Positions 3,823-54,877 of a DNA stretch of 64,000 nucleotides are shown in pieces. Below the pieces are notes generated by a model. That model ran no database searches. It was given only the letters and a program-made list of their open reading frames with translations, and was not told the DNA's origin. The DNA comes from Squalus acanthias (taxonomy: Eukaryota): positions 152,832,001-152,896,000 of the forward strand of contig CM059431.1 of the NCBI GenBank assembly GCA_030390025.1. The letters are read 5' to 3'. A program made the position numbers and the translations under genes. Position 1 is the stretch's first letter; every line of letters starts with the position of its first letter.

Positions 3823-4983
3823 CTAGAAGCGGCTTGCTATTCGTCGTTGACGGACGGCCCTTGCAGTTTGACCATTGTGGGCCGCCCTCCTGCCTTGGTG
3901 CTGCTGATGATCATCGTCCTCGTCCTCTTCCTCCTCTTCCTCCTCCTCCTCTGGTGGTGCTACAAGGCCTGGTGGCATTGGCTGGGTCCTGAGGATTGCC
4001 ATGTTGTGCAACATGCAGCACACGACTACGAAGTTCGAAACTTGCTCAGGCGAGTACTGCAGTGCTCCTCCGGAATGGTCCAGACAGCGGAACCGTTGTT
4101 TCAGCACGCCGATTGTGCGCTCAATAATGTTCCTGGTTGTTTGATGGCTTTCATTGTACCGCAGCTCAGCAGGGGTGTTTGGCGTACGGAGCGGTGTCAT
4201 CAGCCAGGTGCTCAATGCGTACCCCTTGTCCCCCAGAAGCCAACCAACTGGCTGATGCGGTGCCTCGAAAACTTCTGCCACAGTAGTCTGGCGCAGGATG
4301 AAAGCTTCGTGGCAGCTGCCCGGATAGTGGGCATTGACAGCGAGTATCACCTGTCTGTGGTCACAGACCAACTGCACATTCAAGGAATGGAACCCCTTTC
4401 TGTTCCTGAATTCCTCTGCATTCTCTCGCGGAGCACGCAAAGCCACATGCGTGCAGTCAATGGCGCCCTGCACCATGGGGAAGCCTGCTACCCTCGCAAA
4501 GCCCAGAGCACGGTCACGCTTCTTGTCTGGGGTCATAGGGAAAGAGATGAAGTCTCGTCTCCTTCTGAAGAGGGCATTGGTGACCTGCCGGATGCAGCGA
4601 TGCACCGCAAACTGGGAGATATTGGCGAGGTCCCCAACAGCAGCTTGGAATGAGCCAGTGGCGTAGAAGTTCAAAGCCACTGTGACCTTCACTGCCACCG
4701 ACAGAGACGTCCTGGACCTCAGTTGAGGCTGCAGATCTGGCTGCAGCAGGTGGCAGAGCTCAGTGACCACCTCCTTGCTGAATCGCAGCCTTCGCAAACA
4801 CAGCTCCTCGGACATATGGATGTAGGAGAGCTGTTCACGATATACCCTGGGAGGGTAAGCTCTCCTGTACATGCGCCTGATGGCCCTCCTCCGTCTGGCC
4901 ATCATTGCCACTCTCTGTCTGCGTCTCTGTATCCTCCGATTCAGCTGGAGCAGGACGACGCCCCCAATCATTGCAGCCCCCAT
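3823..4983 (-). CDS. Harbinger DDE transposase (HARBI1-like nuclease family), uninterrupted
   Basis: Motifs GAIDCTH, NRKGFHSLNVQLVCD, LLGDKGY, YNESH, IERTIGVLKQRFRCL, CCMLHN and an acidic tail; first ATG at 4983 within ORF 3823..5052. Confidence 0.95.
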   Translation of the reverse strand: MGAAMIGGVVLLQLNRRIQRRRQRVAMMARRRRAIRRMYRRAYPPRVYREQLSYIHMSEELCLRRLRFSKEVVTELCHLLQPDLQPQLRSRTSLSVAVKVTVALNFYATGSFQAAVGDLANISQFAVHRCIRQVTNALFRRRRDFISFPMTPDKKRDRALGFARVAGFPMVQGAIDCTHVALRAPRENAEEFRNRKGFHSLNVQLVCDHRQVILAVNAHYPGSCHEAFILRQTTVAEVFEAPHQPVGWLLGDKGYALSTWLMTPLRTPNTPAELRYNESHQTTRNIIERTIGVLKQRFRCLDHSGGALQYSPEQVSNFVVVCCMLHNMAILRTQPMPPGLVAPPEEEEEEEEEDEDDDHQQHQGRRAAHNGQTARAVRQRRIASRF

Positions 4984-7900
4984 ATTCTCTTTGCCAGAAA
5001 AGTAATGAGGTACAGCAACTAAAGTAGCAACAAAGTTAGGATGAATAGGCAAAACTACCTCACAAAGCGTTGAGTCAATGTAGAAGTCTCTCTCTCTCTC
5101 TCTCCGAATCTCTCTCTCTCTCTCAGAACGAGTGGTGCATAAATGTCGACCACAGAAAAAGACAGGAAGAGGCCCCCTTTAAATAGCGCCCCCCCACAGC
5201 CCCACACCGATTGATAACGTTCCAGTCTTCCGGTCGTTGGAAGCACAGGCGGTAAGGCAGGGGGCGCCACTCAATTTCCGCTCCGGGGCGCCCCAAGGGC
5301 GTTGCACCATGGAATTACGTCACAATCTGCGCGCGCAGGTGGTCGCAGCGGTAAGTTTTAGCGCAGCCGCACAATCTCAAGTTAAGTTCTCGAGCGGCGC
5401 AAACAGCGCTGCGCCCGGGCGTTAGCGGCTTAACGCCCCATTAGCGCCCTATTAAGGCGCTAACGGGAGGCGCATTCAAGTGCTCTATCTCTTTAAAAGC
5501 GGTCGCTGAAGCCTAAGCAGCCTCTGTAAGAGGGTTCCCTGATGATGAAACTCCCTCTTTAAAAGCGGTCACTGGTGTTGAGACTCTCTCATTAAAAGGG
5601 GTCCCTGACGGGTATACTCCCTCTTTAAATGGGGTCCTTGAAGGCGAGACGCTCTCTTTAAAAGGGGTCCCTTCTGGAATTTCTGTCTCATTAAAAGTGT
5701 TCCAAGACGGAGAAACTCAATCTTTAAAAGTGACCGTTGATGGTGAGATTCTATCTTTAAAAGGGTTCCCTGATGCTGAAACACCCTCTTTAAAACGGGT
5801 GAGACACACTCTTTAAAAGGGGTCCCTAATAGTGAGACACACTCTTTAATAGGGGACCCTGATGGTGAGAATCTCTCTCTATAAGGGGTGCCTGATAGTG
5901 AGACTCCATCTTTAAAATCGGTCCCTGATGGTGAGACTCCTTCTTTAAAAGGGATCCCTGATGGTAAAACTATCTTTAAAAGGGCTCCCTCATAGAATTA
6001 ATCCCTCTTTAAAAGGGGTCCCTGATAGAAAGTCTCCCTCTTTAAAAGTGGTTCTTGTAGGACAGACGCTCTCTTTAAAAGTCTCTCTGATGGTGAGACT
6101 ACCTCTTTAAATGTTCTCCCTGATTGTGAGACACCCTCTTTAAAAGGGGTCCCAAATTGGGAGAGTCTCTCGTTAAAAGTGTCCCTGATGGAGAGACTCC
6201 CTCTTTAAAAGGTTTCCCTGATAGAAAGACATCCTCTTTAAAAGGGCCCCATCATAGAAAGACTACCTCTTGAAAGCGAGCCCTGATGGTAAGACTCTCT
6301 TTAAAAGGGGTCCCTGATGGAGAGACTCTCTCTTTAAAAGGGGCCCCTGATGAGAGAATATCTCTTTAAATGCTGTCCCTAATGCCGAAACTCCCTCTGT
6401 AAAAGGGTTCCCAGATGGTGAGACTCCCTCTTTAAAAGATATCCCTGGTGGAGAGACTCTCTTTAAAAGGGTTCCCTGATGCTGAAACACCCTCTTTAAA
6501 AGGGGTTCCTGATGGTGAGACTCCCTCTTTAAAAGGGGACCTTGATGTCGAGATTCTCTATTTAAAAAGGTCCCCTGATGGGGTGGACTCCCTCTTTAAT
6601 AGGAGTCCCTGATGCTGAACACCCTCTTTAAAAGGGGTCCCTGATAGAAAGACGCCCTCTTTAAAAGGGGTCCCTGAAAGAAAGACTGTCTCTTTAAAAG
6701 GGGTCCCTGATGGTGAGCCTCCCCCTTTAAAAGGGGTTCCTGATGGTGAGACTCCATTTTTAAAATGGGTCCCTGAAGGTGTGACTCCCTGTTTAAAAGT
6801 GGTCCCTGATGGCGAGACTGCCTCTTTAAAATCGTTCCCTGATGGTGAAACCCCCGCTTTCAAAAGGGTCCCTAATGTTGATACTCCATCTTTAAATGAT
6901 CTCACTGATAGAAAGGCTCCCTCTTTAATAGGATCCCTGATGGTGAGACACCAACTTTAAAATATGTCACTGATGCTGAGACACCCTCTTTAAAAGGGGT
7001 CCCTGATGTTGAGAATCTCTCTTTAATAGGAGTCCCTGATGCTGAAACACAATCTTTAAAAGGGCTTCCTGAGAGAAATAAGCCCTCTTTAAATGGGGTC
7101 CCTGAAAGAAAGATTTTCTCTTTAAAATGTCTCCCCGAAGGAGAGGCTCACTCTTTAATAAGGGTCCGTGATGGCGAGACTTCCTCTTTAATAGGGGTCC
7201 TCGAGGGAGAGACTTCCTCTTTAATAGGGGTCCGTGATGGTGAGACTCCCTCTTTAAAAGAGGTCCCTGATGGAGAGTCTCTCTCTTTAAATGGGGTCAT
7301 TGAAGGAGATACTTACTCTTTAAAAGGGGCCCCTGATGGTGAGATTCGATCTTTAAAAGGCCCCTGATGCTGAAAAACCTCTTTAAAACGGGTGAGACAC
7401 CCTCTTTAAAAGGGGACCCTGATGGTGAGACTCTCTCTTTAAAAGGGGTCCCTAATGGTGAGATTACATCTTTAAAGGGTGTCCCAGATTGTGAGACCTA
7501 TTCTTCAAAAGGGTCCTTAATGTGGAGACTGTCTCCTTAAAACGGGTCCATGATAGAAAGACTCTCTTTAAAATGTGTCCCCGAGTGTGAGACACCTCTT
7601 TAAAGCGGTCCCTAATAGAAAGACTCTCTCTATAAAATGGGTCCCCGAATGTGAGACACCTCTTTATAAGGGGTCCCTATTAGAAATACTCTCTCTTTAA
7701 AAGAGCTCCCTGATAGAAAGACTCCCTCTTTCAAAGGGATCCCTGATGGTGTGACTTTCTCTTTAAAAGGGGTCCCTGATGGTAAGACTACCCCTTTAAA
7801 AGGGGTTCCTGTTGGCGAAACTCTCTTTTTAAAAGGCGTCCCTGATGCTGAAACTCCCTTTTTAAAAGTGGTCCCAGATGGTGAGCCTCTTTAAAATGTT

Positions 7901-15550: not shown

Positions 15551-18427
15551 TCATGTCCAAATTCCTGCCCGCTCCCCGTAACCCTTAATGCCCTTTACTT
15601 CTAGGAAACTGTCTATTTCTGTTTTAAATTTATTTAATGATGTAGCTTCTACAGCTTTTTGTGGCAGCATATTCCATGGACCTACCACCCTCTGAGTGAA
15701 GTAGTTCCTCCTCATCTCAGTTTTGAAAGGGCAGCCCCTTATTCTAAGACTATGTCCCCTAGTTCTAGTCTCACCCGTCATCGGGAACATCCTCCCCGCA
15801 TCCACCCGATCCAACCCCTTCACAATCTTATATGTTTCAATAAGATCGCCTCTCATTCTTCTGAACTCCAATGAGTAGAGTCCCAATCTACCCAACCTCT
15901 CCTCATATGACCACCCCCTCATCCCCGGGATTAACCGAGTGAACCTTTTTTGCACTGCCTCGAGAGCAAGGATGTCTTTCCTTAAGTAAGGACACCAAAA
16001 CTGTATGCAGTATTCCAGGTGCGGTCTCACCAATACCTTGTACATCTGAAGCAATACCTCCCTATTTTTATATTCTATCCCCCTAGCAATGAAAGCCAAC
16101 ATTCCATTTGCCTTCTTAATCACTTGCTGCACCTGCATACTAACCTTTTGAGTTTCGTCCACCAGGACCCCCAGATCCCTTTGCACTTCAGTACTCTCCA
16201 GTTTCTTGCCATTAAGATAATAAATTGCTCTAGGATTTTTCCTGCCAAAGTGCATCACCTCACACTTTCCAGTGTTGTATTCCATCTGCCAAATCTCTGC
16301 CCACTTACTTAGCCTGTCTATGTCCCCTTGCAGGTTTTTTATGTCCTCCGCACTCACTACTTTCCCTCCCATCTTTGTATCATCTGCAAATTTTGATATG
16401 TTACACTTGGTCCCTTCCTCCAAATCGTTAATATAGATTGTAAAGAGTTGCGGACCCAGCACTGACCCCTGTGGAACACCACTAGTTACTGATTGCCAGT
16501 CTGAGAATGAACCATTTATCCCAACACTTTGCTTTCTGTTAGATAGCCAATCCTCTATCCATGCCAGAATATTACCCCCCATCCCGTGATTTTTTACCAT
16601 AAGCAATAATCTTTTGTGTGGCACCTTGTCAAATGCCTTTTGGAAGTCTAAATACACTACGTCCACTGGTTCCCCTTTATCCACTCTATATGTTACTTCC
16701 TCAAAGAACTCCAGCATATTTGTCAAACATGACTTCCCCTTCGTAAAACCATGCTGACTTTGTCCTATTAAATTATGATTATCCAAATGTCCTGTTACTG
16801 TTTCCTTAATAATGGACTCCAAAATTTTACCTACCACATATGTTAGGCTAACCAGTCTATAGTTACCAGCCTTCTGTCTACTGCCCTTTTTAAATAAGGG
16901 TGTTAAATTAGCAGTTTTCCAGTCTGCCGGGACCTTAGCGGAATCCAGGGAGTTTTGAAAAATTATTACCAATGAATCTACAATCCCTACCGCCACTTCC
17001 TTCAAGACTCTAGGATGTAAGCCATCAGGTCCAGGTGATTTATCCGCCTTGAGTCCCATTATTTTACCGAGTACCACTTCCTTAGTGATTTTGATCGTGT
17101 TTAGCTCCTCTCCCCCTATAGCCCCCTGTTTGTCCAGTGTTGGGATATTCTTAGTGTCCTCTACTGTAAAGACTGATACAAAATATTCATTCAGTGTTTT
17201 TGCCATCTCCATATTTCCCACCATTATTTTCCCGGTCTCTTCCTCTAAGGGACCAACATTTACTTTAGCCACCCTTTTTCTTTTTATATAACTATAAAAA
17301 CTCTTACTATCTGTTTTTATATTTTTTGCTAATTTACTTTCATAATCTATCTTCCCTTTCTTAATCAATCTTTTTGTTATTTTTTGCTGCCTTTTAAAGT
17401 TTTCCCAATCCTCTGTCCTCCCACTAGATTTTGCTACCTTATATGCCCTTGTTTTTAGTCGAATACTATCCTTAATTTCTTTACTTAGCCACGGATGACT
17501 GTCCTTTCTTTTACACCCTTTTCTTTTCAGTGGAATATATATTTTTTGGAAGTTGTAAAATAACTCCTTGAATGTACACCACTGATCATGTGTCGTCTTA
17601 CCCTTTAATCTATTTTCCCAATCCACTCTACTCAATTCCGCTCGCATACCTTCATAGTCTCCTTTATTCAAGCTTAGCACGCTTGTTTGAGATCCAACCT
17701 TCTCACCCTCTAATTGAATATGGAATTCAACCATGTTATGGTCACTCATTCCAAGGGGATCCTTTACTAGGACATTTTTAATTAATCCTGTCTCGTTACA
17801 CAGGACCAGATCTAAGGTTGCTTGCCCCCTGGTCGGTTCAGTTACATACTGCTCAAGAAACCCATCCCTAATACACGCAATGAATTCATCCTCAAGGCAG
17901 CCCTGCCCCATTTGATTTGTCCAATTAATATGATAGTTAAAATCCCCCATAATTATAGATGTTCCCTTATTACATGCCTCAACTATTTCCTGATTGATAC
18001 TCCGTCCAACAGAGTTGCAACTGTTCGGAGGCCTATAGACTACGCCCACTAGTGTTTTTTTCCCCTTATTATTCCTTATCTCCACCCAAACTGTTTCATT
18101 ATCATGATTTTTTGACCCAATATCATTACTCTGTATTACAGTGATTCCTTCCTTTATTAACATAGCCACCGCACCTCCCCTTCCTTCCTGCCTGTCCTTC
18201 CTGATCGTTAAATAACCTGGTATGTTTAATTCCCAGGCATTGTCACCCTGCAGCCATGTTTCTGTAATGGCCACAATATCATAACCATATGTAGGTATTT
18301 GTGCCATCAACTCGTCTTTTTTGTTACGAATGCTACGTGCATTCAGATAGAGAACTTTCAAATATGCTTTGTGGCACTTAGTTCCTGCTTTTTCACTTTT
18401 TACCACTTTACCTTTTACTCCACACAC
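15551..18427 (-). CDS. CR1 ORF2: AP endonuclease plus reverse transcriptase, 958 aa, uninterrupted
   Basis: LYLNARS, ITETW, GDFN, SDH (APE); KSPGPDG, YLDFQKAFD, GVPQGSVLGP, FADD (RT). Confidence 0.96.
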   Translation of the reverse strand: MCGVKGKVVKSEKAGTKCHKAYLKVLYLNARSIRNKKDELMAQIPTYGYDIVAITETWLQGDNAWELNIPGYLTIRKDRQEGRGGAVAMLIKEGITVIQSNDIGSKNHDNETVWVEIRNNKGKKTLVGVVYRPPNSCNSVGRSINQEIVEACNKGTSIIMGDFNYHINWTNQMGQGCLEDEFIACIRDGFLEQYVTEPTRGQATLDLVLCNETGLIKNVLVKDPLGMSDHNMVEFHIQLEGEKVGSQTSVLSLNKGDYEGMRAELSRVDWENRLKGKTTHDQWCTFKELFYNFQKIYIPLKRKGCKRKDSHPWLSKEIKDSIRLKTRAYKVAKSSGRTEDWENFKRQQKITKRLIKKGKIDYESKLAKNIKTDSKSFYSYIKRKRVAKVNVGPLEEETGKIMVGNMEMAKTLNEYFVSVFTVEDTKNIPTLDKQGAIGGEELNTIKITKEVVLGKIMGLKADKSPGPDGLHPRVLKEVAVGIVDSLVIIFQNSLDSAKVPADWKTANLTPLFKKGSRQKAGNYRLVSLTYVVGKILESIIKETVTGHLDNHNLIGQSQHGFTKGKSCLTNMLEFFEEVTYRVDKGEPVDVVYLDFQKAFDKVPHKRLLLMVKNHGMGGNILAWIEDWLSNRKQSVGINGSFSDWQSVTSGVPQGSVLGPQLFTIYINDLEEGTKCNISKFADDTKMGGKVVSAEDIKNLQGDIDRLSKWAEIWQMEYNTGKCEVMHFGRKNPRAIYYLNGKKLESTEVQRDLGVLVDETQKVSMQVQQVIKKANGMLAFIARGIEYKNREVLLQMYKVLVRPHLEYCIQFWCPYLRKDILALEAVQKRFTRLIPGMRGWSYEERLGRLGLYSLEFRRMRGDLIETYKIVKGLDRVDAGRMFPMTGETRTRGHSLRIRGCPFKTEMRRNYFTQRVVGPWNMLPQKAVEATSLNKFKTEIDSFLEVKGIKGYGERAGIWT

Positions 18428-18539
18428 TCTGTCCCTTTATGCCACGCTCTGATTTGTGATTCCCCTACTGCTACCTATGTCTATGACCCTCTCTGTTGTC
18501 ATTTTTATTTTTTGCTCTCTTGAAACCTCCCCCCCACTA

Positions 18540-19496
18540 ATTAGTTTAAAGCCCTCTCCACAGCCCTAGTTATTCGATTCGCCAGGACTCTAGTCCCACA
18601 CTGGCCAAGTGAAGTCTGTCCCAACGGAACAGCTCTCTCCTGCCCCAGTACTGGTGCCAGTGTCCCAAGAAGCAAAACCCATTTTTACCACACCAGTCTT
18701 TGAGCCACGCATTCAACTCCCTGATTTTATTTACCCTAGCCAAATTTGCTCGTGGCTCAGGTAGTAATCCAGAGATTATTACCCTCGAGGTTCTGCTTTT
18801 TAATTTGTCCCCTAGCTGCTCAAACTCCCTCAGCAGAACCTCTTTCCTTGTCCTATCTATGTCATTGGTACCAACATGGACCACGACAACTGGATCCTCC
18901 CCCTCCCACTCCAAGTTTCTCTCCAGCCCAGAGGAGATGTCCTTAACCCTGGCACCGGGCAGGCAACACAGCCTTCGGGACTCTCGCTCTTGGCTGCAAA
19001 GAACCCTATCTATCCCCCTAATGATACTATCCCCTACCACTACAACATTTCTTTTTACTCCCCCCACTTGAATGGCCCCCCCTACCACGGTGCTGTGGCC
19101 AGGTTGCTCATCCTCCCTGCAGTCTCCGCTCCTATCCACACAGGGAGTAAGAGCCTCGAACCTGTTGGACAAGAGCAAGGGCTGCGGCTCCTCCAACACT
19201 ACCTCCTGGATCCCTGTAACTGCCTCACTCGTAGTCACACCTTCCTGTCCCTGACCACGGGCTACTTCTGAATTAGTTACTCTAATTGGTGTGACTACCT
19301 CCTGAAACACGGAGTCCAGGTAACTCTCCCCCTCCCTGATGTGTCGCAGTGTTTGAAGCTCGGACTCCAGCTCATCAACACAGAGCCGGAATTCCTCGAG
19401 CAGCCAACACTTACTGCAATTGTGTTCACCGTGAACATCAATGGTGTCCACCAGCTCCCACATATTGCAGCAGTAACACATCACCTGCTCTCCCAT
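18540..19496 (-). CDS. CR1 ORF1: zinc finger/leucine zipper plus SGNH esterase, with a 1-bp deletion near the C-terminus
   Basis: CxxC...CxxC, heptad LCVDELESELQTL, GDS, HVGTND, DRLH; reads AGTGTGGGACT at ~18600 versus AGTGCTGGGACT in the related copy at ~60130. Confidence 0.9.
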
Positions 19497-19711
19497 TCTA
19501 TGTAATTAATTAAAATTTATTATTTACCCTTCAGTTAATTTATGCCAGCAGTCTCCGCTACACCACAGATACCCGAGAAACTATAAACTATGGAATTGAA
19601 GTTTTGTATAAAAAAAAGAGAAATACTCACCAACCAATCACTTACCTGCTTTCTGGTGACGTCACACTTCGATTATTTTTTACCTCTCTCCTGCTCTCGG
19701 CTTGGTGAAAA

Positions 19712-26454: not shown

Positions 26455-27397
26455 TGTGAAGGAATAGCCAGGATTCAGAATAATATACGATAAGAAAAAG
26501 AGATTTCTGAAATTATTAATACATGACGTACTGGGTTTAAAATCATAAGCCTTAGCAGACACAGGCTGCAAACAGAATACAGGCTTATGAGATAAGATGG
26601 TTTGTTAACACAAAGCTGTTAACACAAGTTCGAGTAAAAACCTGGTTTAAGAACGAAGTGGAAAAAAGCTGTTCAAATACGTTCTGTTATTAACGAAAGA
26701 ACAGTTCAAATACATGTTAACCAGCCGAATTGCAAGCATATTTTTAAAACTGTCTCCATAGAAAATATCAAGAGATGTCCTGCAAGATACCGAAACGGCG
26801 GAAAAATACAAGGTGCAGTTGTACACTGTCTTTTAAGAGCCAGCTTGGAGCACGACACAGGAAATGGATGCGATCGAATTACTGATGATGGGAAGTCAGA
26901 AGGTGTACTCGGCTCTTCTACACGCTGCTTGGCAACGCATCAGGATTAGGATTTGCGAAACGCAACACCGAAACAAGGAAAGATCAACGAGTTACTTCAG
27001 CAAAGGAGGAAGACATCGCGGATAAAGAAATAATTAACTGAGTGCCTCGTAAGGCCTATACAGATACAAACATCTGTACACACGCTGGATCGAAGGAACA
27101 GCGTGTCAAGCTTCAACTAATTTCAAATGACGTCACCTTGACTCGTATGAAGAACTCACCTCTACATCTGCTGATTGAACATTTTAAGTACATTTTGTTT
27201 GGCTCATACATGTCTATGTTATCATCCTTTTAAATTGTGTACAATTTAAAATAAGGCAAAACATTGTCCTAGGATGATTTAAAAGGAATTTTCATGTTGC
27301 ACATGAATGTTCATCTCGTAAAATGAATATGCTATTGTAACCTCATAAGCAATATTGATCAAACCTTGTCCTGAAGTTTTAAGCTCATCTTTTGGTC

Positions 27398-27407
27398 AAG
27401 GCGGGGC
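27398..27407 (+). promoter_or_regulatory. Polypurine tract (degenerate)
   Basis: AAGGCGGGGC immediately before the TGTGAAGG start of the 3'LTR. Confidence 0.65.
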
Positions 27408-29096
27408 TGTGAAGGAGTAGCCAGGATTCAGAAAAATATATGACACTAAAAACAGATTTCTGAAATTATAAATAAATGACATACTGGGTTTAAAAATAGT
27501 AAGCCTTAGCAGACACAGCTTGCAAACAGAATACAAGCTGATGAGATAAGATGGTTTGTTAACACAAAGCTGTAAACACAAACTTTGATATGGGAATGGG
27601 ATAGAGACAAAGGCAATGCCCTATGGAAGCAAACCATTGGGAGGTTCCTCTAGAGTTTGGGAGAAAATCAATGGAATGACCCCCCAAGTAAAGTGTTATA
27701 ATCTAACACGTCTAACAGGTGCACAGGACTTTAAAAAAAAACAAGTGCATTTGAAAAAATGACATCAAGTAAGAAATACCTGTCGTAAAATAGTTTTATG
27801 TTAAACTTAGAAACAGGAAACACGATTAAATATGCAACCAATTCACATCGCGAGAAAACAAGTAAACACTGAGTTAAAGTGTTTTCAATTTACATATTGT
27901 AAATATAATACATACAGAAGGCTTTGAAGAAATGACATCAAGTAAACGAAACGCCTGCTGAACAAATAGTTTTAATGCTAAGCTTGAGGATGGAGTCACA
28001 TTGTCTGATAAAAAAACAATTGATGTAAATAAGAAATGTATGGAACACCCTAGATAAAGTGGTTTTAATTTACAAGTTGTAAAAGGTACACAAACATGAC
28101 GACTTTGAAAATATTACTTCAATGGATACACCAAGCAATCACATTGATCTTGTATTGAACATGGAATACCACGGAGACACAACGCCTGATAATAACCAGT
28201 TAAAGTAATATTAGAAAATCAGTAGAAAGACTTTGATAAGAATTGCGTCAAACAGAAACCATTGCTGTTCTTGTTTATATGACGGTTTTTGAAACCTCTA
28301 TGCTACAGACATAATTATGCATGCAATATCTAAATTGAGAGTAAAGACAGAAAGCATTCAACAGAGATATCAATAAAGAATAGAACAAAGTCAGCAAAGA
28401 CATAACTTAATACAATTAAGCTTACATCATCAGGAAAACTGCAAAGGATAAACCACCCAAAAAAGATATAAAAATAGATCTTTTCAAACAGAAAAGTCAG
28501 AAGTCACTGGGACGACAAGCGTTTCTCAACTTCACAGACATTCTCTGTAAGTTTACAACGTTTGAGTCTCGGGTAATCAAGGTATTTGATTGTGGTGGAT
28601 ATTCTGGATTAAGAAATAAGTAGAAGTGTGGAAATGTAACGAAGTTAAGTTTTGAGAATAAGGATCTCTGATAAGAAATGTAAGCTATTTGTATTTTGAA
28701 CGATTAAAGTTGTGATTGCCATAATATATGTAATCTAAATGTCGGTTCGTCAATAAATCTATATATTGTTAAAATTGTCTCAAAGAACAATACTGTATTA
28801 TCTTGCGAACTCAATTGCTGTGCAATCAAAGGACTGGTAGAATTCTCAGGGGTATTCCGGACCCTCATAATATCCTGAAGTTTTCAGTCTAGTTAAACAT
28901 TTTAAAAGTACTTACTGGAGGACGGTAACAACTTTAGACCGTTTCTTTCCTTTATGAAAAGGTAGCCTGACCTTTAGACCCAATTAAGCGTCTTATAGGA
29001 ACCGGCTACCGCAAACTTTAGTTGAAGGTAAACGTCTGGGGAATACGCCTGATCTGTGGTAGTCCAAAAGGGCTAGGACTTGTAATTATCCCTTCA
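27408..29096 (+). repeat. 3' LTR (1689 bp) of the foamy-like element
   Basis: Homologous to 44375-45794; TATAAAA at ~28467 and AATAAA at ~28752. Confidence 0.92.
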
Positions 29097-37075: not shown

Positions 37076-38501
37076 TGAAGGGATAATTACCAGTCGTAGC
37101 ACTTCGGGCTACCCCAGATAAGGCGTATTGCCCAGACGTTCACCTTCAACTACAGTTAGAGATAGCCGAATCCGAGAGACGCTTAATTGGGTCTACAGGT
37201 TCAAACTATCTCTCCCTAAAGGAAAGGACCGACTTGAAGACGTTACCGTCCTCCAGATCGCACTTTTAATAAGTTTAAATAGACTGTAAAGATCTGGATA
37301 TTATGAGGGTCCGGGAAACACCACAGAATTCTGCTACTCCTCACAAAAAAGCGTTCAAAATTGAGTTCTCGAGATTGATACAGAAGTACTATGTGAGACA
37401 ATTCTAAAAATATTTAGATTTATTAAAGAGCCGGCATAAACTTAACAGTTGGTGATTTCAATCGCAACTTTAAAACTTCAAAATTCAAATGACTTACATT
37501 TCTTATCAGAGATCCTTATTCTCAAATCTTAACTTCGTTACATTTCCAAATTCGTACATATTTATAATCCAGAATATCCATCAAAATCAAATAAAAGTTA
37601 ATTTTGATCCCCGAGACTAAAAAAGATAAAAATTTACAGAGGCTGCCTCTGAAGTTGAGAATCGCTTTGACGCTTCCAGCGACTTCTAACTTCCTATCTG
37701 AAAGCACTATATTTTATACCCTTTTTTGCAGTGGTATATTCTTTGAAGATTTCTTCTGATGTAAGCTAATTATCTCCAGTCATCTTTCTGTTGACTTCTT
37801 TCTATTCTTACTTTCAATTCAGCTGCTAACTTGCAGAATTCTGTCTCTATCTTTAGGTGTTCGAAGTTATCATACAAAATGGTCATGACAGTTGTATCAA
37901 TTTGATGACATTCTTACGAAGGTCTCCTGTTGATTTCTTAAATTACTTTAACTGCTTGTATTACAGACTTCGCATCTCCTTGTGTTCCAATTTCAACACA
38001 TAAACCATGTGATTACTTGATGCATCTTCTGTTTTTACCTTTTACAATATGTAAATCAAAGCACTTCAATCGAGTACTTGATTGTTTCACTAGCCATCTT
38101 AGTTGGTTATATTACAAACTTATGTTTCCTGTCTTTCATTTGATGTTACTTTTACAAAGACACATGGTTTTTTAATGCTCTGTGTTTCTGTTCGAAGTGT
38201 TAGTTTATAACACGTTAAACTGGGTATAGCTATTGTGTTGGTTCCAAACTGCAGACTTCTTGGAACCTACAATCCTCTGTTTCAATGAGGCCATTGTCTC
38301 ATTGTCAATAACCAATTCCTATTTCATAAGCTTGTATGGTGTTTCCGGCTTTGTGACTCATCGTATCTCAGAAGCCTGTATTTACAGTTTTTTGTCATTC
38401 AGGCTTTTAGATTTTTAAATCCAGTTTGCCATATTTTAATAAAACCAGAATTCTGTTCATAGGATGGTGTATTTTTCTGAAATATGTCTAATTCCTTTAC
38501 A
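37076..38501 (-). mobile_element. Solo LTR (1426 bp) of the foamy-like family
   Basis: Reverse complement runs TGTAAAGGAAT...ATTATCCCTTCA; perfect 4-bp TSD CCCT (37072-37075 and 38502-38505). Confidence 0.93.
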
Positions 38502-44374: not shown

Positions 44375-45794
44375 TGTGAAGGAATAGCCATATTCAGAAA
44401 AATACACCTTGCTATGAAATATTGTGACTTAATTAAACATGACAAACTGGGCTTGCAAATCTGAAAACCTCAGAAGCTGTAAACAGAATACAGGCTTTTG
44501 AGATAAAAATAGTTGTTGACACTCAAACAATAGCCTCATTGAAACAGAAGTTTAAAGTTTCCTGAAAGTCTGAAGCCTTGGAAATGAACACAATACCATA
44601 CCCAGTTGAAGGTGTCTTGAACCAATACTTTGAAATAAAACAGAGAACATTAAATAAACATGTGCCTTTGTAAAAATGACATCAAGTAAAAGGAACACCT
44701 GCCATCAAATCATTTTTATGTTAAACTTTGAACACGGAGACAGGAGTTTGTGTTTATACCAACTGAGCTAAGAAGACAATGAGATACCCGGTTGAGGTGT
44801 TTTTAATTTACATATTGGAAAAAGATACAAAAAGAATACTTTCATAAATATGACATCACTAGATGCAACAGCCTTCACATTGTTTCTGTGTGGAACTTGG
44901 AACACCTAGGACACCCGAAGTCTGTAATACAACCAGCTGAGGTGACTTAAGAATTTAATAGAAGTCTTTCGTAAGAATGGCATCAAATAGACACATCTGT
45001 TACAACCGTTTTTTTATGATGAACTTGGAACACCTAAAGGAGGGGACATAATTCTACTAAAAACAAGCTGAACTAACTGTAAGAATAGAAGGGGTCAAAA
45101 GAAATGTGACTAGTGATAATTAACTTACATCAGCAGAAAACTTCAAAGGATATACCACTGAGAAAGAGTATAAATATATAACTTACAAATGGGAAGACAG
45201 AATTCGCTGGAAGGAGCAAACCTGTTCTCAGACTTAAGAGGCAAGCTCTGTAAGTTTTCAATTCTTTAAGACTCGGGTATCAAGGTATTTGATATTGCTG
45301 GATGTCCTGGAATAAGACTAAGTAAGAAATGTAAAAGTGTAGAGAAGTTAAGATTTGAGAATAAGGAGCACTGATGATAAGAATTGTAAGCTTTTTGTAT
45401 TTTGAACTGTTAATGTTGCTACTGAATCACCAACTGTAACTACATCTTGGTTCTTTAATAAATCTGTATATTTTTTTAGAATTATCTCACACAGTACTTC
45501 TGTATCAAATTCGCGAACTCAATCTCTGTACACTCTTTGAAGAGGAGTTGCAGAATTCTGGGGGAGTTTTCCAAATCCTCATAATATCAGGAAGGTCACA
45601 GTCTAGCTAAACTTATTAAAAGTGCTATCTGGAGGACGGTAACATCTTCAGGTCGATCCTTTCCTATAGGGAGAGATAGTCTGGACCTCTAGACCCAATT
45701 AAGCGTCTCTAACTTTAGTTGAAGGTGAACGCCTGGGGAATACGGCTGATCCGGGGTAGCCCAAAAACGGCTAGAACTAATAATAATCCTTTCA
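44375..45794 (+). repeat. 5' LTR (1420 bp)
   Basis: TGTGAAGG...CCTTTCA; TATAAA at 45169 and AATAAA at 45457; homologous to the other two complete LTRs. Confidence 0.93.
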
Positions 45795-45796
45795 GT

Positions 45797-45812
45797 TGGC
45801 GCCCAACGTGTG
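45797..45812 (+). promoter_or_regulatory. Primer binding site, tRNA-Lys1,2 type
   Basis: TGGCGCCCAACGTG two nt after the LTR end; this is the PBS type used by foamy viruses. Confidence 0.92.
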
Positions 45813-46056
45813 TGTTAACGAGTTGATACAGAACCTAAACTTATATTTATATCTATATCCATCTTGTAGATTGTTAAGTATAGATGGATGTTTTACTGAC
45901 AGTGGTAATAAGACCCAGACTTACGTCTCTAGAGACAGCAAGTCCCTGATCAGGCCTTGTAAAACTTAAATCAGAACGCCCTCAATATACCATTGAGGCC
46001 TAGAACTTTCTTATAAAGTTCATATTAAAACCTAACCGAGATTAGGTCCTTAAGAA

Positions 46057-47600
46057 ATGGCAAACCCTGTCGTAATTGGCCAAGTCTTTTTATTAGGAAA
46101 TTCAAACGATTCCTTTATTAGGGGAAATAATTCTATCCCTTTACCTTCACAAAACCAAGTGATAGTTTTTGAAATAGGAGGCTTTGATGCTGATGGAGCA
46201 GTTAGAACTCATGGCACGATTGATGTTGATCCCCAGAATCAGTTGATACGGAATATCCAGTAGGATATTGAAACAAATATTCCAAATCCACTGAATTCCT
46301 TAATGATAACGTGCACACCTGCACAATTGGGAGGCCTAATGAACGGTGCCCAACAAGGTGGTGGCAACCATGGCAGAATAGTAGGACCAGGAGCTGCCTA
46401 GGCTCCCGGGGGACATGGATTCGGTTGAAGTCGAAGCTCATGATGAAATAAATGAGCAGAATCTTCGAGAAAAATATAGACAGCTTAGAATCCATTATAA
46501 TCAATGCCGACAGGCACTAGCTCAATCATATCTAAATGCTGGTGGCGCAATGCTTACTGGTCCAGTAAGCCAAACCCAGCAACCACACATTGCTCCCCAA
46601 GGACAAGTAAACCTAAGCTCTATCTGCACAATATGTGGTAAGCCGGGAAACACCAGCCAGGAAAAAACCTGCTGGATTCTAACAAACCTTGATAAATTGG
46701 AAACCTCTTGCCAAGAATAAAATGCCCCACACCTGAGGCAACTACTGCAAATGATACTAAGTTCAGACTTAATTCCCCCATTAACAAATGGGTTAAATAT
46801 ACGCCTACGTTCTCACGGCAACTCAGGGAGGGCATGTAATGGGTTCCATCAAGGAAATACTCACTAATACCGCCACAACTAAAGGGCTGGTAGCTGCCTA
46901 CAGATTAGGCAATGTACTTACACAGGATAACTGAGGCATTGTCCATGGTTGCCTGGCCAATCAATACCAAAATAAAGCCCTCAAACTTGCCTTTGAGGGG
47001 GTTTTAAACGATTATCGAAATAACCAACAAAGATGGGAAAATTTCAATCGCATTATCCAATTAAATCATTACCTCTTAGGTCTACCCCAAACTAAAACTA
47101 TAATGAGATCAGAAACTAGGGATATAAAAACCGGAGAAGGTACCTTTTGTACTCAGAAACAAGGACTGTTTAGACCCAAGTCTCAAGTCCACCCCGCCCA
47201 GACACAAGCTCGTGGCTCGGGAACCCCCAAGAGGGTATTCCAGAAGGTTTACATCCGCAACTCGCCCACAATACGAGGAAGATTTATCCCCGGAAAGATA
47301 GGATAGAAGAGGGGCTAGATCTCAAAACGAAAGTGAAGGACAGTGGACTCCCTATGGGGATAGCTTTTACACTGGCCAAAACTATCAGAGAGCCATGAGG
47401 GGCTACCGGGAAATCCGAAATGGGGATCAAAACGATTCCCAGCAGAACCAACGTCCACCCCAACAGGAGGATCGTCAAGATAATAAACGGTCCGACAAAC
47501 TCCGAAGGGATCTGGAAAACATGATACCCCCAAGAGGGAGGAACAAAAATCAGTTAAAATAATTAAAGACAAAGCACCAAATAAAACTCAGGATCCTGAG
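46057..47600 (+). pseudogene. gag: Foamy-like gag (stops and frameshifts)
   Basis: N-terminal coiled coil; ICTICGKPGNTSQEKTCWILTN spaced like PFV IRSVTGEPPRNPREIPIWLGRN; LPGQS (~46950, PGQA-like); HYLLGL (~47067, YxxLGL-like); Q/R/G-rich tail. Confidence 0.8.
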
Positions 47601-47601
47601 T

Positions 47602-50600
47602 ATGGACAGTCCCAGGATTCAAGGCCTGGCATCCAGCCAGCGCCTCTTGAATTCCCCTATGCCCTGGCAAACTTACCCACAAACACACAAGTGAAGGCCC
47701 TGTTTGATACGGGAGCTGATAACACTGTCATAGATCCTGCAATTATAAAAACTAACAGGACAGATTTGGGAAGCCCAATTTGTTAAATACCAATAGGGGG
47801 ATTCACACAAGACAAAATCAAAAAAAAATATTATTACAAAATACCTATTACCATATATGGATTCACGGTGACCCTAGATGTCGGACTGTTACCACAATTG
47901 GCCTGTTCCCTCATTATAGGACAACCAGACATGAAACATTACCTTAAAATTTCAACCAGATCTGTAGAAGCATCCGCAGACCAGGATGACAGGGAAAAAC
48001 ATGTTCGGACACAGCTTGATCGCACTTGCCTAGAGGGGGAGGCAAAGACCTCCTCGAGCAACTCCTTAATATATTATACCCTTATCTACAACGCCATCCA
48101 AATCAATGTGGAAAGATAAACATCAAATCCCACCCACTTGCTGCTGGCTGGAACAAACCTAAAAACCAGTGCCAATTCAGGACAACAAAGGAAAAATAGA
48201 TCTTCTAACAACGCTCAAAGAACTAACACAACAAGGTGTCTTAATCAAAATGGCATTTAGAACGAATTCACCATTGTTCGGTGTTTCTAAACCAGATGGG
48301 AGTTGCAGATTATTAGTCGATTATACAGATTTAAATTAGATAACAGCCCCACATACTGCACAAAAGCAAAATTCCACAGCCCTTCTCTCTGGAATCACGA
48401 GGGAAAAATATAAATCTTGTATTGGTCCAGCAAACGGCTTCTGGTCACATCCAATCGAAAAAACTGATTGGCCAAAAACAGCGATGACTGGACCCAATGA
48501 TTATCAGTACTGCTGGACCAGATTGTCCCAGGAATTTCAAAACAGCCCCGTTCTCTTTTCAGTCCACAAAATAGACCATTTAAAATACCTACCTAACGTC
48601 AATTCTTATGTGGACGATATATCTCTGTCACATGACAATCTCCAAGAGCACTTGAAAGTCATTGATAGTGTTTTATCCAGACTTACAACTGCTGGGTAAT
48701 TAATCAACATAAAAAAGAGTCAACTAGTTAGGGAAGAGGTAGATTTTCTGTGCCTGCAAATAACTGGATTCGGTAGAGGACTAACTCAATTCTATAAAGA
48801 AAAATTATCCACCATTCAATATCCTAAAATTCTGAAAAATCTGCAAGCAAGTTTAGGACTCCTGAATTTTGCTCGATCCTTTACGCCAACCTTTGCCGAG
48901 CTCTCAGCACCCCTGTATGCTAGAGTGGGCGAAGCAGAAAAAGGACCATTCATATTTTCACCAGAGGATTACTCAAAATTGCAACAATTATGCCGAGAGG
49001 TACGAAAAGGCATAGACGTGGAGCAGATGGTCCTGCAAGTTCCCCTCAATATTCATCTCAGGTCATTACCTAAAATGGCAGTTGCAGTTTTCTATAATGA
49101 AAAGAACATAGTGCCCATTCAGTTCCATTTGTATAACTTTTTCAATGTCGAAAGGAGGTACATTAAAAAATAAATGTTCATGACTATAGTAGTCCAATGA
49201 CTCATCAAGGCACGAACCCTTCTGGGAAATACCCCATTACCATCTATACTGAAATTACCGATTTAAGATCAGTATTGAGGATGGCCTCTGATGAAAAAAG
49301 AGCCATCCAGATCTGATATGATAAATGGGCAATCTTACTTGAATGATCCAACACTGATCATTAAATTCCTCTCCCCGGAAATGGACAGAGCTTATCCCCA
49401 TCATGGAGAATGAGGATACGGAGCAGCGAATGAGACAAATACCTATGAGACCGCTTACATAATACCATCAAGTCATTTAATTTGATGGGTCGTTAATGAC
49501 GATTAAACAAGGGACATCCCAACAATCCTCAGCTGGGATGGGGATAGTAGTAGTGACCTTTCGAGATTCCTATTCTTTTTATACAGAAGAATTACTGTCC
49601 ATACCCTTTGGCCATAAGACAGCGCAGTATGATGAAGCTGCAGCACTACGGTATGCTTTAGAAAAGGCAGACCTTATTAAACCCACACGAATCTGTATGG
49701 ATAGTGACTACCATAACAGAGGAGATAACCAAGATCTAGTTTTCTGGGAACAAACAAATTTTACCAATCATAATTGTAAACCCATAAAACATAAGTCATT
49801 GCGGGAAGACATTCTCCTTTCGAGAGTAGAGAAACAGAATTGTCAGGTGATTCATGTGAACGGGCATACCAATGGGAGAGTTCGCTCAAAAGGAAACAGT
49901 CTTGCAGACGAACAAGCGAAACGTTTAGTCGGCTTGACCCCCCCTCGAGAGGGGCCTGCCAATATTAATGTTATCACTAGGGCAGAACGGGCAGCTAATC
50001 AGGATGAGGAACTGATTCAGCTATTAGACCCAACAAAAGAGAGTCCACCAGGATATCCACCAAAGTACTTTTACTCGGAACCCGTACGGGTATTGTGCTA
50101 GTTAAGTTGCCCAAGGGAAACCGAGGAGTACCCCTGAGACACAAACGAGAACAGCTTGTAAAAGGAGCTCAAGAGGACATAAGTCAAGCACATTGTGGTG
50201 CCAGAACAACATTCTGCAAATTGACCTCCTTATCTTGGTGGCCAGGCATGCTTAATGCCTGTAAAACATACGTGGCAAATTGTGAGCCATGCCAGTTAAC
50301 CAACAAGTCATCACTAATTAAGCCACCACCATTGGCTCCTGTGAAAGCTGATGAGTCAATGGGGAAAATTCTTTATTGACTTTATTGGACAACTTCCCCC
50401 GTCTTTGGGATACAGACATGTTCTCGTTTGTGTAGGTGGGTGCACTTTCTTCTGCTGGCTGGTCCCCACTAAAATTGTTTCAGAAAACGCACTAGCTAAG
50501 GCTTTTTCTAACATAATTACTGTAGCTGATGCACCCAAAATCTTACACTCCGATCAAGGCAGAGCCTTTGTCTCCAAGGTCTTCGAAGACTACTGCAAAT

Positions 50601-51392
50601 AAAGGGGGATTGGGTTAGAGCACAGCACGCCACGTCATCCGCTATCAGTGGGGCTGGTGGAACGTAAAAACAAGAAAGTAAAACAGCTATTCGTCAAACT
50701 GTTGAGATTCAGGGGGAATAAGTGGACCACCGTTATTCCGAAGGTGCAGCTATCACTTAGTAATGTTCCCGCATCTGCATCAGGGACAGAGTCCCCTAAA
50801 ACCCCATATTATCTGATGTGTGGAGTTGACATGAATACACCACTTACCCATAGTTATTTTATTGCCTCTGCACTCTCTGAGTCCTTGACCCGACAGTGAC
50901 AGTTAGATTTTAAAAAGAAGTAAAAGAGGAGATTCATCAAATTGATCAGAGGATAAGGGAAGCAAAAAGGCAGAAACGATTGACAAACAATGCATGGAAA
51001 CCCCTAGTAGGAGAATGGGTACAGGAAAAGAAGTTCGAGCAAAAACCTAGTTTAAGACCGAAGTGGAAAAAACCTGTTCAAATACATACTGTTATTAACG
51101 AAAGAACAGTTCAAATACATATTAATTAACCGAATGGCAAGCATATTCTTAAAACTGTCTCCATAGAAAATCTCAAAAGATGTCCTGCGGGATACCGAAA
51201 TGGAGGAATAATACAAGGTGCAGTCGTACACTGTCTTTCAAGACCCAGCTTGGAGCATGACACAGGAAATGGATGCGATCGAACTACTGATGAAAGTCAG
51301 TCAGACGGTGTCGCCGACTCATCCACACGATGCTTGGCAAAGCCTCAGGAATTGGATTCGCGAAAATTAACAACTGAAACAAGGAAATATTA
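47602..51392 (+). pseudogene. pol: Foamy-like pol: protease, RT, RNase H, integrase (multiple stops and frameshifts)
   Basis: LFDTGA; ANGFWSHPI; QYCWTRLSQEFQNSP; YVDD; SIPFGHKTAQ; AHCG...WWPGM...CEPC; KFFIDFIGQLPPS; HSDQG; VERKN; WKPLVGEWVQE; SLRPKWKKP; TVSIENLK. Confidence 0.95.
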
Positions 51393-51512
51393 ACGAGTTG
51401 CTTCAACGAAGGAGGAAGACATCGTGGATGAAGAAGGAATCAACTGAGTGCCTGGCAAGACCTTTATGAAAACAAGAATCAGTACACACACCGGATCGAA
51501 GGAACAGTGTGT
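51200..51512 (+). pseudogene. Short ORF in the env position overlapping the pol tail (ORF-X); second copy at 26795-27120
   Basis: ATG inside pol codons AAT-GGA; the two copies have stops at different codons; merged reading is ~108 aa. Confidence 0.5.
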
Positions 51513-52689
51513 GACCAGTGCTAGTGCGAGCAAGCACTGAGTGCGAGTCAGCAGAGAGTGCTGCGATTGGGTAAGTGTGACAGTTCTTTAATTGTTAGTT
51601 CTCTTTAAATCATTCTTGATAAGAGTACTTAAGCAGTTTAAGTGAAGGGTAAAAGTTAAATATTTGGGATTCTGTTGGTTGAAGAAGATTGGCTGCCTCA
51701 TCAGCCAGTAGAAGGAGACTGAGGAGAGCAGCAGCAGCAGCAGAAGCAGAAGCAGAGTGGTGGTCTCCTTGACCAGGGAGAGGAGGAGGAACCAGAACCA
51801 GACTGCAGACCACCACCAACCCAACAACCACTCCAACTGAGGTGCCTGGAGAGAGAGGACAGGAGAGGAGAGGGAGAAGGAGAAAGGAAGGCCAAATAAA
51901 CATCACCAGAGGAGGAGAGGCCTTTCCATAGTGCCTCCCCAATTGGCCTCCATTTTAGGAGAGGGAGAGAGGGGAGAAAAACAACACCAGCAACCATCAT
52001 CTGCTTGGAAGGAGGGAGGAAGAAAAGAACAACTGCAGGTGAGTTTGTTTTGCAGGTGGGGGGAGGAAAGAAGAAAAGAAGAGGGCCGGAATATCCAAGG
52101 GGTGTGTGTGTGTGTGTGTGGCTTTTGAAAGAACTAGGCCGCACACACCACTAATTAAACACCCCTTCCCATTGCCTGACCTGGGACAGCTGGAGCTGCC
52201 TAGGTGAAGTCCCCAATTCAATTAACCTGATTGGGGCATCGTTAAGACCTGGTGCAGGACTGAGCCTGGGCATCTCTAGCTTTCCCAGGTGAAGACATCT
52301 TCTCCCCCCACCAGAAGACCACCGGAGAGGACTCTAATTTACATCGGAGAGTGCACCCCCTGCCAACACCCACCCACCCACCATCCTGAGTGGCGACCCT
52401 GCCCTTGTGGCTTCCCTCCTTCCCACCCCCACTCTCTCTCTCTTTGTCTCTTGTCTCTCTCTGCCTCTCTCTCTATCAGATAGGCACCTCAATTTACTTT
52501 TATTAATTGCCCATTGAGCAGAGGGGAGAAGGCCCCTCTCCTAATCCATTCAAATAAAGGGAGAGGTGTACCTTCAATTTAAGAGCTCCCTCTGCTCAGG
52601 GGAAAAAAAAAAACCCACAAAACCCAATGCCATTAACACCGTCAGGCCTGTGACTTGGGGTGAGTGTAGCCCTTAAAGACCCACCCATT

Positions 52690-54876
52690 ATGGCGAGCAC
52701 ATCTTCGTCGGTGGCGGGGGCAGCGAGGACGTATGCGAGCGTAGCAGCTGCGGCCACGGCCGCAGCCACGAGTCCTCCTGTTACCCCGTCACCTTTTACC
52801 CTCCTTACGAGGACGAATGGGGTCAAGAGCTACACTCACCCCAACATGAGTATAGAGGCGTGTGTAAAAGCCATGGCTGGGGTTGTCGGCCCTTCAGCCA
52901 TCGTTGCCGCCTCTAAAATGTACGGCAAGGCTGTGTTCTTCCTGGGGTCGGAGCGGGCGGTGTCCCTGGCCATCGAGAAGGGGCTCACCGTGGGCGGGAC
53001 CTTCCTGCCGGTGGACCCCCTTGAGGCCACCGCGCAAAGGATAGTTATTTCCAACGTCCCGCCCTTTGTTCCGGGTGAGCTCCTCCTCCCCCACCTACGT
53101 CAACTGGGGGAGGTGAGGTCGGGGATCACACCCATCCACTCGGCTTCCGGGAAGCCAGCCTCCGGCACGTCTTCTCCTTCCGGCGCCAGCTTTTCATCCA
53201 GCTGGCGTGGGAGGAGGACGCGGACGGCGCGTTCATGGTGCTCCACGGGGGGACTGCCCATCGCGTCTTCTGGACCTCGGACGGCGTGCGGTGCTACGCC
53301 TGTAAGGGGGTGGGGCACGTCCGCAAAAACTGCCCCGCCTCCAAGGCCGCCACGACACCTGGCGCGGCCAGGGCTGGCGCCGCAGCACCCACTCCACCTG
53401 ATACTACCCGCGCGTCGAAATCCACAGATGCGCGGTCGACGTCGGGGGCCAACACCATCACGGCCTCCAGCGGGGGGGAGGGAGAGCGTCCGAGGGGAAG
53501 GAAGGCGCTGAGAAAGACCAAACACCTAAGGGCGGATCCCCTCGTGGAGGAAACCACCGATTTGCCTGAACTCACGCCCGCGCTCATCGCGGAATTGACG
53601 GGGACGCGTGAGGCTGGGGGGGTCCTCGTGCCCGGGCACGTGACCGTGACCACAACTGCCAAGGCAGCTAAATCAAGACCTGCGGCCGGGCTCGGGCCCG
53701 AGGGGCCCAAGAAACCCAGTCATCGGAAGGGGGCAGACAGGGAGGCCCCAGCAGACATGGAGGCCTACCCCTCTCCGGGCCCCAACATGTTAAAAAGGAA
53801 GCTCTACCCCCAGGAGGAGGACAGAGAGGAGGAAGGTCCCTCCGCAAAAGGGGAGTCGTCGCCCGCCGCGGGTGCTGCGCCCCACCCCACCGCTGTCACC
53901 ATCGTGCGCGATCGGCAGGGGTCTCCTGTCCCTCGGGAGGGTGAGACAGACAAGTCTGTCGCACCCGTGCCTCCCGGGGATGGGGAAGAGACCCTGCCCG
54001 TGGGTGGGTGCGCGGAACAACCCGCGGAATTAAATAAAAAAGGAATACCAGAACCGTTGCTCCTCGCCGGGTCGGGCGTCCTGGGGACTGGGGCGGGCGA
54101 GGCCAAAGAGGCCGGTACTGAGCCCGCCCACTACGACCCAGATATATCCCAGGGACTGCTCGAACTGGTCGAGGATTGTAATACGAATCCCCAGCCCGCT
54201 GGGTCGGAGGCTGGTGGCGGGGAGATAGAAAGCCCCCTGACTCCGTCTCTGACGTTGGCGCCGGACGTGCTAGAAGAACTGGGAATTTTTTACTCCCCAG
54301 TTTCTCCGGTCGCTCCGGCGCCTGAGGCAGAGGGGGGCCCCCGAACCGCTGCCGCCACCCGGCCCGGCGCCCCTGAAGGAGCCCAGGGTGGACTCCTCTG
54401 CCACCGATCCTGGGGGTGGGATCGTGACAGACGCGGGACCGGCCGGTGCGGCAGGGCCGTTCACTGCACCCCGTGCGACGGACTGGTTGGCCGCCGGTGA
54501 CGACCTCCCAGAGGAGGACGGGGAGTCGGTGTTGGGCACTGAGGACGATTTGGAGTCCATCACCAGTGAGACGGTGGACGCCCTCGTGCCTCGCACCGCC
54601 TCTCCCTTCATCCCCGTAGGGAAACTCCGGGTTTTTATGGCCACGTGCCGGGGTCGTCATCATAAGATCCGGCTGGCCCTCGACAAATGGTCGGAGCTGG
54701 CGCTGCTCGTCCGGTCCGTCCGCGCCGCCATTAAAATCATGGGCGCGGACAAGGACGTAAACCGGGCCGAGCTGCGTCGGCTCAAGGCGTTCCACGCTGG
54801 GCTGCTGAGGGAGTGGCGGTCGTCAGTGACCGCGCTCCCTCCCCCCCGTTGGGTAGAGGTTGCACTATGCTTCTGA
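52690..54876 (+). pseudogene. Tx1 ORF1 (gag-like with CCHC knuckle), two frameshifts
   Basis: IVAASKMYGKAVFFL, ISNVPPFVP, CYACKGVGHVRKNC; split over ORFs 52660, 53235 and 54388. Confidence 0.88.
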
Positions 54877-54877
54877 G

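Follow-up and report, generated by a model that had tools for sequence, protein, structure and literature searches.

A foamy-like endogenous retrovirus family of Squalus acanthias whose short ORF-X is very probably a stump of env

The window analysed here, a stretch of 64,000 nucleotides of the Squalus acanthias genome (GCA_030390025.1, contig CM059431.1, positions 152,832,001 to 152,896,000), sits in an array of a 33-bp satellite in a 3.7-Gb genome and contains two forward-strand copies of one LTR family (26455-29096 and 44376-51512), which are 85.5% identical over their shared part (51200..51512 of the second copy against 26626-27106). The first copy has the order 173-bp LTR stub, integrase tail, spacer, polypurine tract (PPT) and 1689-bp LTR. 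The stub (26455..26627) corresponds to the first 173 bp of U3 (89.7% identity to 27408-27581) and is joined through an internal deletion to the 3′ end of pol (26627..27041), which codes for the integrase C-terminal SH3 domain (Pfam SH3_11, E 0.0026, short of the cut-off) and a long C-terminal tail, in a frame broken by a 1-nt loss near 26966. The PPT (27398..27407), recognized from its sequence, lies at the same position in env-less and env-bearing copies of the family, and is followed by a complete 3′ LTR with TG...CA ends (27408..29096; delimited by LTR comparison). The copy that the earlier note on this DNA called the 26455 element is not whole: the LTR stub is fused directly to the integrase tail, and no primer binding site (PBS), gag, protease or reverse transcriptase (RT) is found within it. 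The same fusion recurs in three further loci (L001, L016 and L017), which are segmental duplicates of this copy, as L021 is of the second one; two of the three have the same left flank, from which it follows that the 26455 copy represents one insertion duplicated along with its satellite array.

The second copy consists of an LTR, a PBS and a decayed gag-pol, and ends at 51512, where another element cuts in. Its 5′ LTR (44376..45794) is ~70% identical to the LTR at 27408 by LTR comparison. The adjoining PBS (45797..45810), identified by its sequence and by the recurrence of the motif downstream of the 5′ LTR of further copies, is what we take to be a tRNA-Lys type site as in foamy viruses. The gag and pol remnant (46057..51447), with stops and frameshifts, was assigned from the RT, RNase H and integrase zinc domains detected in the window frames, with support from the Gag_FV_central and Spuma_A9PTase domains detected in other family copies. 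Frame and alignment place the ORF-X of this copy at 51200..51512, with stops at codons 4, 57 and 90 and an interruption by the inserted element. The latter is a 7.5-kb element (51513-59008) with 68-bp direct end repeats and two frames, one with a zinc knuckle and one of 876 codons for an RT, and the foamy-like copy is not resumed downstream of it within the window. A further LTR at 37076-38501 on the reverse strand looks like a solo LTR; the three LTR types in the window (27408, 44376 and 37076-38501) are ~70-77% alike, as against 84-92% for pol. The satellite array also hosts a DDE_Tnp_4 (Harbinger-type) transposase frame and LINEs with an endonuclease-RT and an esterase-type ORF1 (3823-5178 and 15551-19505, both on the reverse strand, and 59206-63999).

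The foamy origin proposed in the earlier note is borne out by the proteins of the family. The integrase, taken from a natural open frame of another copy, matches that of the exogenous foamy virus PFV with E 2.5e-78 as against 3.2e-9 for Ty3, the protease-RT region matches foamy chains with E 1.7e-131, and the foamy scores for both integrase and protease-RT are far above those for Ty3, MLV and HIV. Gag_FV_central scores above the cut-off in all three Gag-bearing frames, Spuma_A9PTase does so in three of the five frames scanned, and Gag itself matches PFV Gag (E 4e-7). A foamy-type Env with leader, SU and TM is absent from all 99 env-less loci studied and is present, but decayed, in the env-bearing sister loci described below. 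As a separate observation, gag and pol of the family lie in one frame, with a TGA as the junction codon in 36 of 52 copies (TGG in 8, TGC in 4, TCA in 3 including the window copy, where the junction is at ~47618-47620, and GGA in 1). The TGA is also present in one of two env-bearing sisters, and most copies have no Met within 15 codons behind it. The arrangement suggests stop readthrough or an unusual splice, to judge from the codons at the junction, and not the PFV layout.

The part of the first copy between integrase and LTR is as short as the earlier note had described: the TVSIEN motif begins at 26749, the distance from the K codon (26746) to the 3′ LTR (27408) is 662 bp, and ~630 bp separate the end of the motif from the PPT. 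ORF-X does open on the N-G codons of the pol tail (ACG at 26795, ATG at 51200); phmmer pairs these with the N-G codons of the PFV integrase tail, at which PFV env presumably starts, and in the env-bearing sisters of the same family env begins at the ORF-X start codon. The frame of ~108 codons, which the earlier note had assembled from two damaged copies, is open in many copies and ends at a +324 stop in 92% of the aligned rows; 7 of the 44 aligned loci have the ATG and neither a stop nor an indel. (The main alignment comprised 44 of 59 loci plus five partial rows, with 12 left out that had large insertions, deletions or truncations.) As evidence for the frame the second window copy holds for the start, and it does not for the last codons and the PPT, the copy being cut at 51512. 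A transmembrane stretch is lacking, as had been stated: the highest 19-residue Kyte-Doolittle means for two ORF-X copies are 0.27 and 1.06, and those of two Env leaders are 2.18 and 2.37. The family pol stop, a TGA at 27039-27041, occurs at +245 in 98% of the aligned rows, such that pol overlaps ~82 of the 108 ORF-X codons; since the same stop is found in three of four env-bearing sisters, this overlap predates the deletion of env.

Two other points about ORF-X were corrected by alignment. In the first copy it has an ACG start, a stop at codon 14 and the frameshift near 26966, and the lesions of the two copies are not copy-specific: the codon-14 stop is present in 15 of 17 loci of a subfamily that we call A, 16 of which have AAG at the start and have thus lost it, and the codon-4 stop of the second copy is present in 10 of 23 loci of subfamily B, of which 22 have the ATG start. 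The codon-4 stop is at a non-CpG site, only 2 of 146 comparable columns are equally polymorphic, and no site in a 735-nt block co-segregates with it, so that it may mark a mutation hotspot. A later Met, at codon 24, follows both of the shared stops. Likewise, the CRE palindrome noted after the stop (TGACGTCA at 27128) is found in one of 49 aligned rows, namely the window copy itself, and is a one-copy mutation; the site reads TGACGTCT in 24 of the 49 rows. The spacer of ~290 nt from ORF-X to the PPT has stops in all three frames; a candidate coding frame in it (dN/dS 0.39, 0.19-0.83) was one of 11 frames tried, has fixed stops and was put down to chance.

We assembled 99 env-less loci from four selections: 20 from the 40 scored matches to the window element, 39 by the integrase core, 20 by the ORF-X protein and 20 by the LTR-PBS junction. 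The distance from integrase to LTR is constant, with medians of 674-682 bp across the four selections, and the motif-to-LTR distance is 600-720 bp in 19/20, 25/39, 19/20 and 10/20 loci, respectively; the loci outside this range reflect insertions, deletions, truncations, a motif beyond the fetched stretch or pattern misses. The short spacer is not a deletion private to the window copy in a family that mostly holds a full ~3-kb env: DNA from the interior of env (SU or TM) is matched by 0 of the 99 loci. Two deletion junctions, which are mapped below, are present in 77 (junction 1) and 81 (junction 2) of the 89 loci that bear the integrase motif. In a second alignment of 65 rows, which is without L062, L065, L067 and the env-bearing L090 and L091, 61 env-less rows cluster apart from four sisters with a support of 0.84. 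The junctions common to the family, together with this grouping of the env-less rows, indicate that env was lost once. A contig from run X1, which carries another organism code (record 6), covers both env-deletion junctions (window 26800-27165) at ~86% identity, a weak hint from sequence similarity that a related organism might have the env deletion in common.

A genome search with the Pfam Foamy_virus_ENV model returned 11 matches at six places, and none in 14 control genomes; two env DNA probes found two more env-bearing places, bringing the total to 8, which is a floor. The six sister loci that we fetched settle what ORF-X is made of. In five of them the ORF-X sequence opens env (blastp 72% identity, E 2e-49), and the sister Env frame runs on through a hydrophobic span (around residues 110-135) to the Foamy_virus_ENV match (E 2.6e-6, just under the cut-off). 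Codons 1-92 (26795..27070) are the cytoplasmic N-terminal part of the Env leader, ORF-X nt 1-277 aligning to env nt 1-277 of the sisters (DNA 75-88% identical), as the earlier note had allowed in speaking of an Env-leader vestige. The following ~11 codons (27071..27103; ORF-X nt 277-310), between the two deletions, derive from the beginning of the Env TM subunit: blastn matches them to env nt ~2000-2035 of L085 and L087 and to the equivalent position in L091, about 18 residues downstream of the basic SU/TM cleavage site. The remainder (27104..27397) is post-env, pre-PPT sequence, which aligns to the final ~350 nt upstream of the LTR of env-bearing sisters and provides the last five ORF-X codons and the stop (27118-27120). 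The leader is thereby cut ~17 codons upstream of its membrane anchor and ~30 nt downstream of the pol stop, and the lost sequence amounts to about 1.7 kb in one deletion and about 1.4 kb in the other. The joins carry microhomologies of 2 nt and 4 nt and no GT donor; an origin of the deletions by splicing was considered, since deletion 1 has an acceptor-like right end, and was rejected, as GT is absent at the left end in 4/4 sisters.

This mapping bears directly on the other option of the earlier note, that ORF-X is a newly gained accessory gene replacing env, tas and bet. ORF-X does look like an orphan: four of four copies hit 0 Pfam families at E 10, PDB sequences yield 0 matches, none of six candidates from a 5.8-billion protein set (lengths 59-189) was upheld, and the ESM Atlas gives no usable match. 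Direct matches to mammalian foamy leaders are likewise absent from the Pfam and PDB searches. The sole match in a profile search of 1.84 billion representatives (P0001) is a single-member tandem-repeat protein aligned over 28 short stretches, and was dismissed as chance. However, each of the three ORF-X pieces has its counterpart in the env or post-env DNA of the sisters, which refutes a novel gene, and we give the idea practically no credence; its expectation of purifying selection is not seen either, and inactivating changes occur in many copies.

The sisters have ~560-750 nt after env, and we found no Tas or Bet homologue in them, the one post-env frame tested (144 codons) having no Pfam match. 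In L086 (1599-2030, reverse strand) and L090 (~7560-7850, forward strand) the post-env stretch is longer and includes a protein-like motif rich in Cys and His, also without a Pfam match and absent from three other sisters, which is possibly a small accessory exon. The first ~95 nt after the sister env stop match an interspersed repeat that 13 of the 99 loci carry at unrelated positions, and it would seem that the env-bearing virus picked up a fragment of a host repeat. One sister, L091 (G000:C4:156770500-156780499), has its own env deletion (~nt 150 to 1790) along with a pol deletion, as a single occurrence.

We then asked whether selection acts on the stump. Over codons 1-92, the net pairwise dN/dS is 0.92 (0.39-3.01) for sisters versus B, 1.02 (0.60-1.93) for sisters versus A, 0.68 (0.16-3.14) for sisters versus C and 1.50 (0.75-4.61) for A versus B; over six comparisons (three close sisters and the env-less groups) the values are 0.68-1.50 and every interval spans 1, so that the dN/dS below 1 named as a check in the earlier note did not emerge from what is a test of weak power. 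Upstream pol has values of 0.29 (0.15-0.53) within the sisters and of 0.53-0.54 when sisters are set against env-less groups. The low power is evident from the leader itself, which among the env-bearing sisters reaches only 0.68 (0.35-1.38), and from the A-B comparison, which is without power, the integrase control in pol giving 0.88. Within groups, the ORF-X frame has a dN/dS of 0.5-0.8 in most cuts, and non-coding control frames have 0.75-2.15. Deletion 1 keeps the reading frame, as one in three deletions would by chance. That subfamily C has few stops is uninformative, 17 of its 21 loci having been chosen from stop-free rows; and since subfamily A has a pol deletion of its own, the loss of ORF-X there is uninformative on a role in trans. 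A role of ORF-X in trans, or from the codon-24 Met, is possible.

Such a role is the substance of a second alternative, in which the stump was kept on purpose. In PFV, the interaction between Gag and Env maps to the Env leader. A Gag-Env interaction is described in the accessible text on PFV (PMC3705263). A soluble leader fragment that would bind the Gag N-terminus could aid capsid assembly, retain capsids in the cell or block related viruses; the cytoplasmic part, made in trans by autonomous copies as a small soluble protein, might steer capsids to the nucleus or shield the cell from infectious relatives. The cut falls just before the membrane anchor and spares the very part that meets Gag in PFV, the ATG is kept in 22/23 B loci, and the frame is unbroken in 7/44 loci. 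Yet the cut is also ~30 nt behind the pol stop, which accounts for its site without any function, no selection signal is seen, start loss and stops are common to many copies, and the protein-set searches recovered no relative outside this genome. We regard retention for a function, in either form, as very unlikely.

Instead, we consider it very probable that two deletions in a foamy-like endogenous retrovirus reduced env to the stump seen as ORF-X, and that the env-less form then spread to hundreds of copies, likely by intracellular retrotransposition in the germ line. The deletions would have arisen once, through template switching at the 2-4 nt microhomologies. ORF-X likely survived because pol covers ~82 of its codons and stops ~30 nt before the first breakpoint: any deletion sparing the pol tail would leave a stump, which as a protein would be dispensable. 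Foamy Gag is without a membrane-targeting signal and needs Env for budding (PMC3705263, in its accessible text), and reverse transcription is late; primate foamy genomes can retrotranspose and Env-deficient PFV vectors reintegrate (PMC3185757, likewise). On account of the need for Env and the late reverse transcription, the loss of Env alone would trap DNA-containing capsids in the cell, which may then re-enter the nucleus. Copies with full gag-pol would supply the proteins, also to deleted subfamilies reduced to the LTRs, PBS, 5′ gag and 3′ pol.

The make-up of the family fits the class of env-less retrotransposons in its shared env deletion, its excess of env-less copies and its integrase-type insertions. 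First-look counts give 515 candidates by integrase (40 scored) and 797 by ORF-X (150 scored), as against at least 8 env-bearing loci in the same genome, that is, roughly 60 to 1 when the 515 are set against the 8. Among 27 elements whose ends were examined, both ends could be called in 19; an exact 4-bp target site duplication (TSD) flanks 11 of these and one with a single mismatch flanks five, while the three without a match are the window copy and two with doubtful ends. The LTR pairs of 12 elements are 1.9-5.4% apart. Subfamily B includes copies with full-length gag-pol, and subfamilies A and C have shared pol deletions; C keeps ~317-375 nt behind the LTR and ~2.3 kb from 3′ pol to the PPT, although most deleted copies examined were chosen by their 3′ part, so that the apparent retention of 3′ pol may in part reflect this choice. 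A subfamily in which the stretch from gag to RT is deleted, beginning ~317 or ~375 nt after the LTR and reaching RNase H (L024, L045, L049, L055, L056, L058, L060-L078 and L117), has the layout of a minimal foamy vector. Tandem proviruses sharing one LTR, or an LTR directly abutting another, were observed in L027, L029 and L014.

The same data bear on a third alternative, in which ORF-X is equally dead and the env-less genomes spread as defective passengers, with Env from helper proviruses or an exogenous virus. In its favour, this genome does harbour env-bearing sisters with a similar pol (82-90% DNA identity over gag-pol to the second window copy), and the pol-deleted subfamilies were clearly mobilised in trans. 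Nonetheless, we hold helper Env to be unlikely in view of the ~60 to 1 excess of env-less over env-bearing loci in the first-look counts, the full-length gag-pol in many env-less copies, and the env-less LTRs, which are only ~69-76% like most sister LTRs, in contrast to the 82-90% of pol, and which fit a long separate replication. Of the earlier designation as a foamy-derived intracellular retrotransposon, the foamy origin and the family-wide loss of env are thus established, and the intracellular route is the likely reading by analogy with foamy biology. ORF-X itself is most likely an ordinary remnant, and the wider import lies with the family, which provides a dated series in which to study how a foamy LTR functions when no Tas is detectable.

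Among known systems, exogenous foamy viruses such as PFV are alike in the Gag central domain, the A9 protease, the RT and integrase best matched by foamy proteins, the long LTRs and the 4-bp TSD, and the sister Env resembles theirs in its leader, two membrane spans and basic SU/TM site. In contrast to them, the window family has Env mostly deleted, Tas and Bet are not detected, and env overlaps pol by 82 codons. PFV Pol is described in the accessible text of PMC3185757 as made from its own spliced RNA, unlike the single gag and pol frame split by TGA in 36/52 copies here. The foamy-like endogenous retroviruses (FLERVs) of fish, amphibian and shark (CmiFLERV, ERV-Spuma.0-Sca, NviFLERV and AciFLERV), compared by description only, belong to the same kind of lineage; the shark ones are described with pol only, or with a Gag or Env domain not detected, in the accessible portions of PMC5512871, PMC10699275 and PMC5210030, and those portions contain neither a mapped env deletion nor a contrast of env-less with env-bearing copies. 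Titles and abstracts of the openly accessible literature yielded no foamy-lineage env-deletion family with env-bearing sisters, although the present family may be named in supplements.

Mass spread after env loss is itself known, as far as the accessible accounts go, from IAP (derived from IAPE), MusD and MuERV-L, which are alike in combining a small number of env-bearing relatives with numerous env-less copies and with subfamilies that are deleted and non-autonomous, but are of beta-like or ERV-L lineages; what is added here is the origin of ORF-X. The IAP switch involved a change in Gag targeting. For a foamy-type virus, unlike IAP, loss of Env alone would be expected, by analogy with foamy budding, to suffice for trapping capsids. 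The family extends to the foamy lineage the pattern of Env-less 'superspreader' ERVs (Magiorkinis 2012, as cited in the accessible part of 10.1101/2021.11.23.469661). The closest experimental parallel is provided by Env-deficient PFV vectors, which require 5′ gag, 3′ pol and the PPT (CAS-I, CAS-II and CAS-III), about the portions kept by subfamily C, and for which the accessible text of PMC3185757 reports ~5% reintegration under what it terms an artificial condition. In contrast to these vectors, the window family is natural and germ-line, and the genome likely records the natural reintegration of Env-deficient foamy genomes in hundreds of copies, with the sisters present and the junctions readable.
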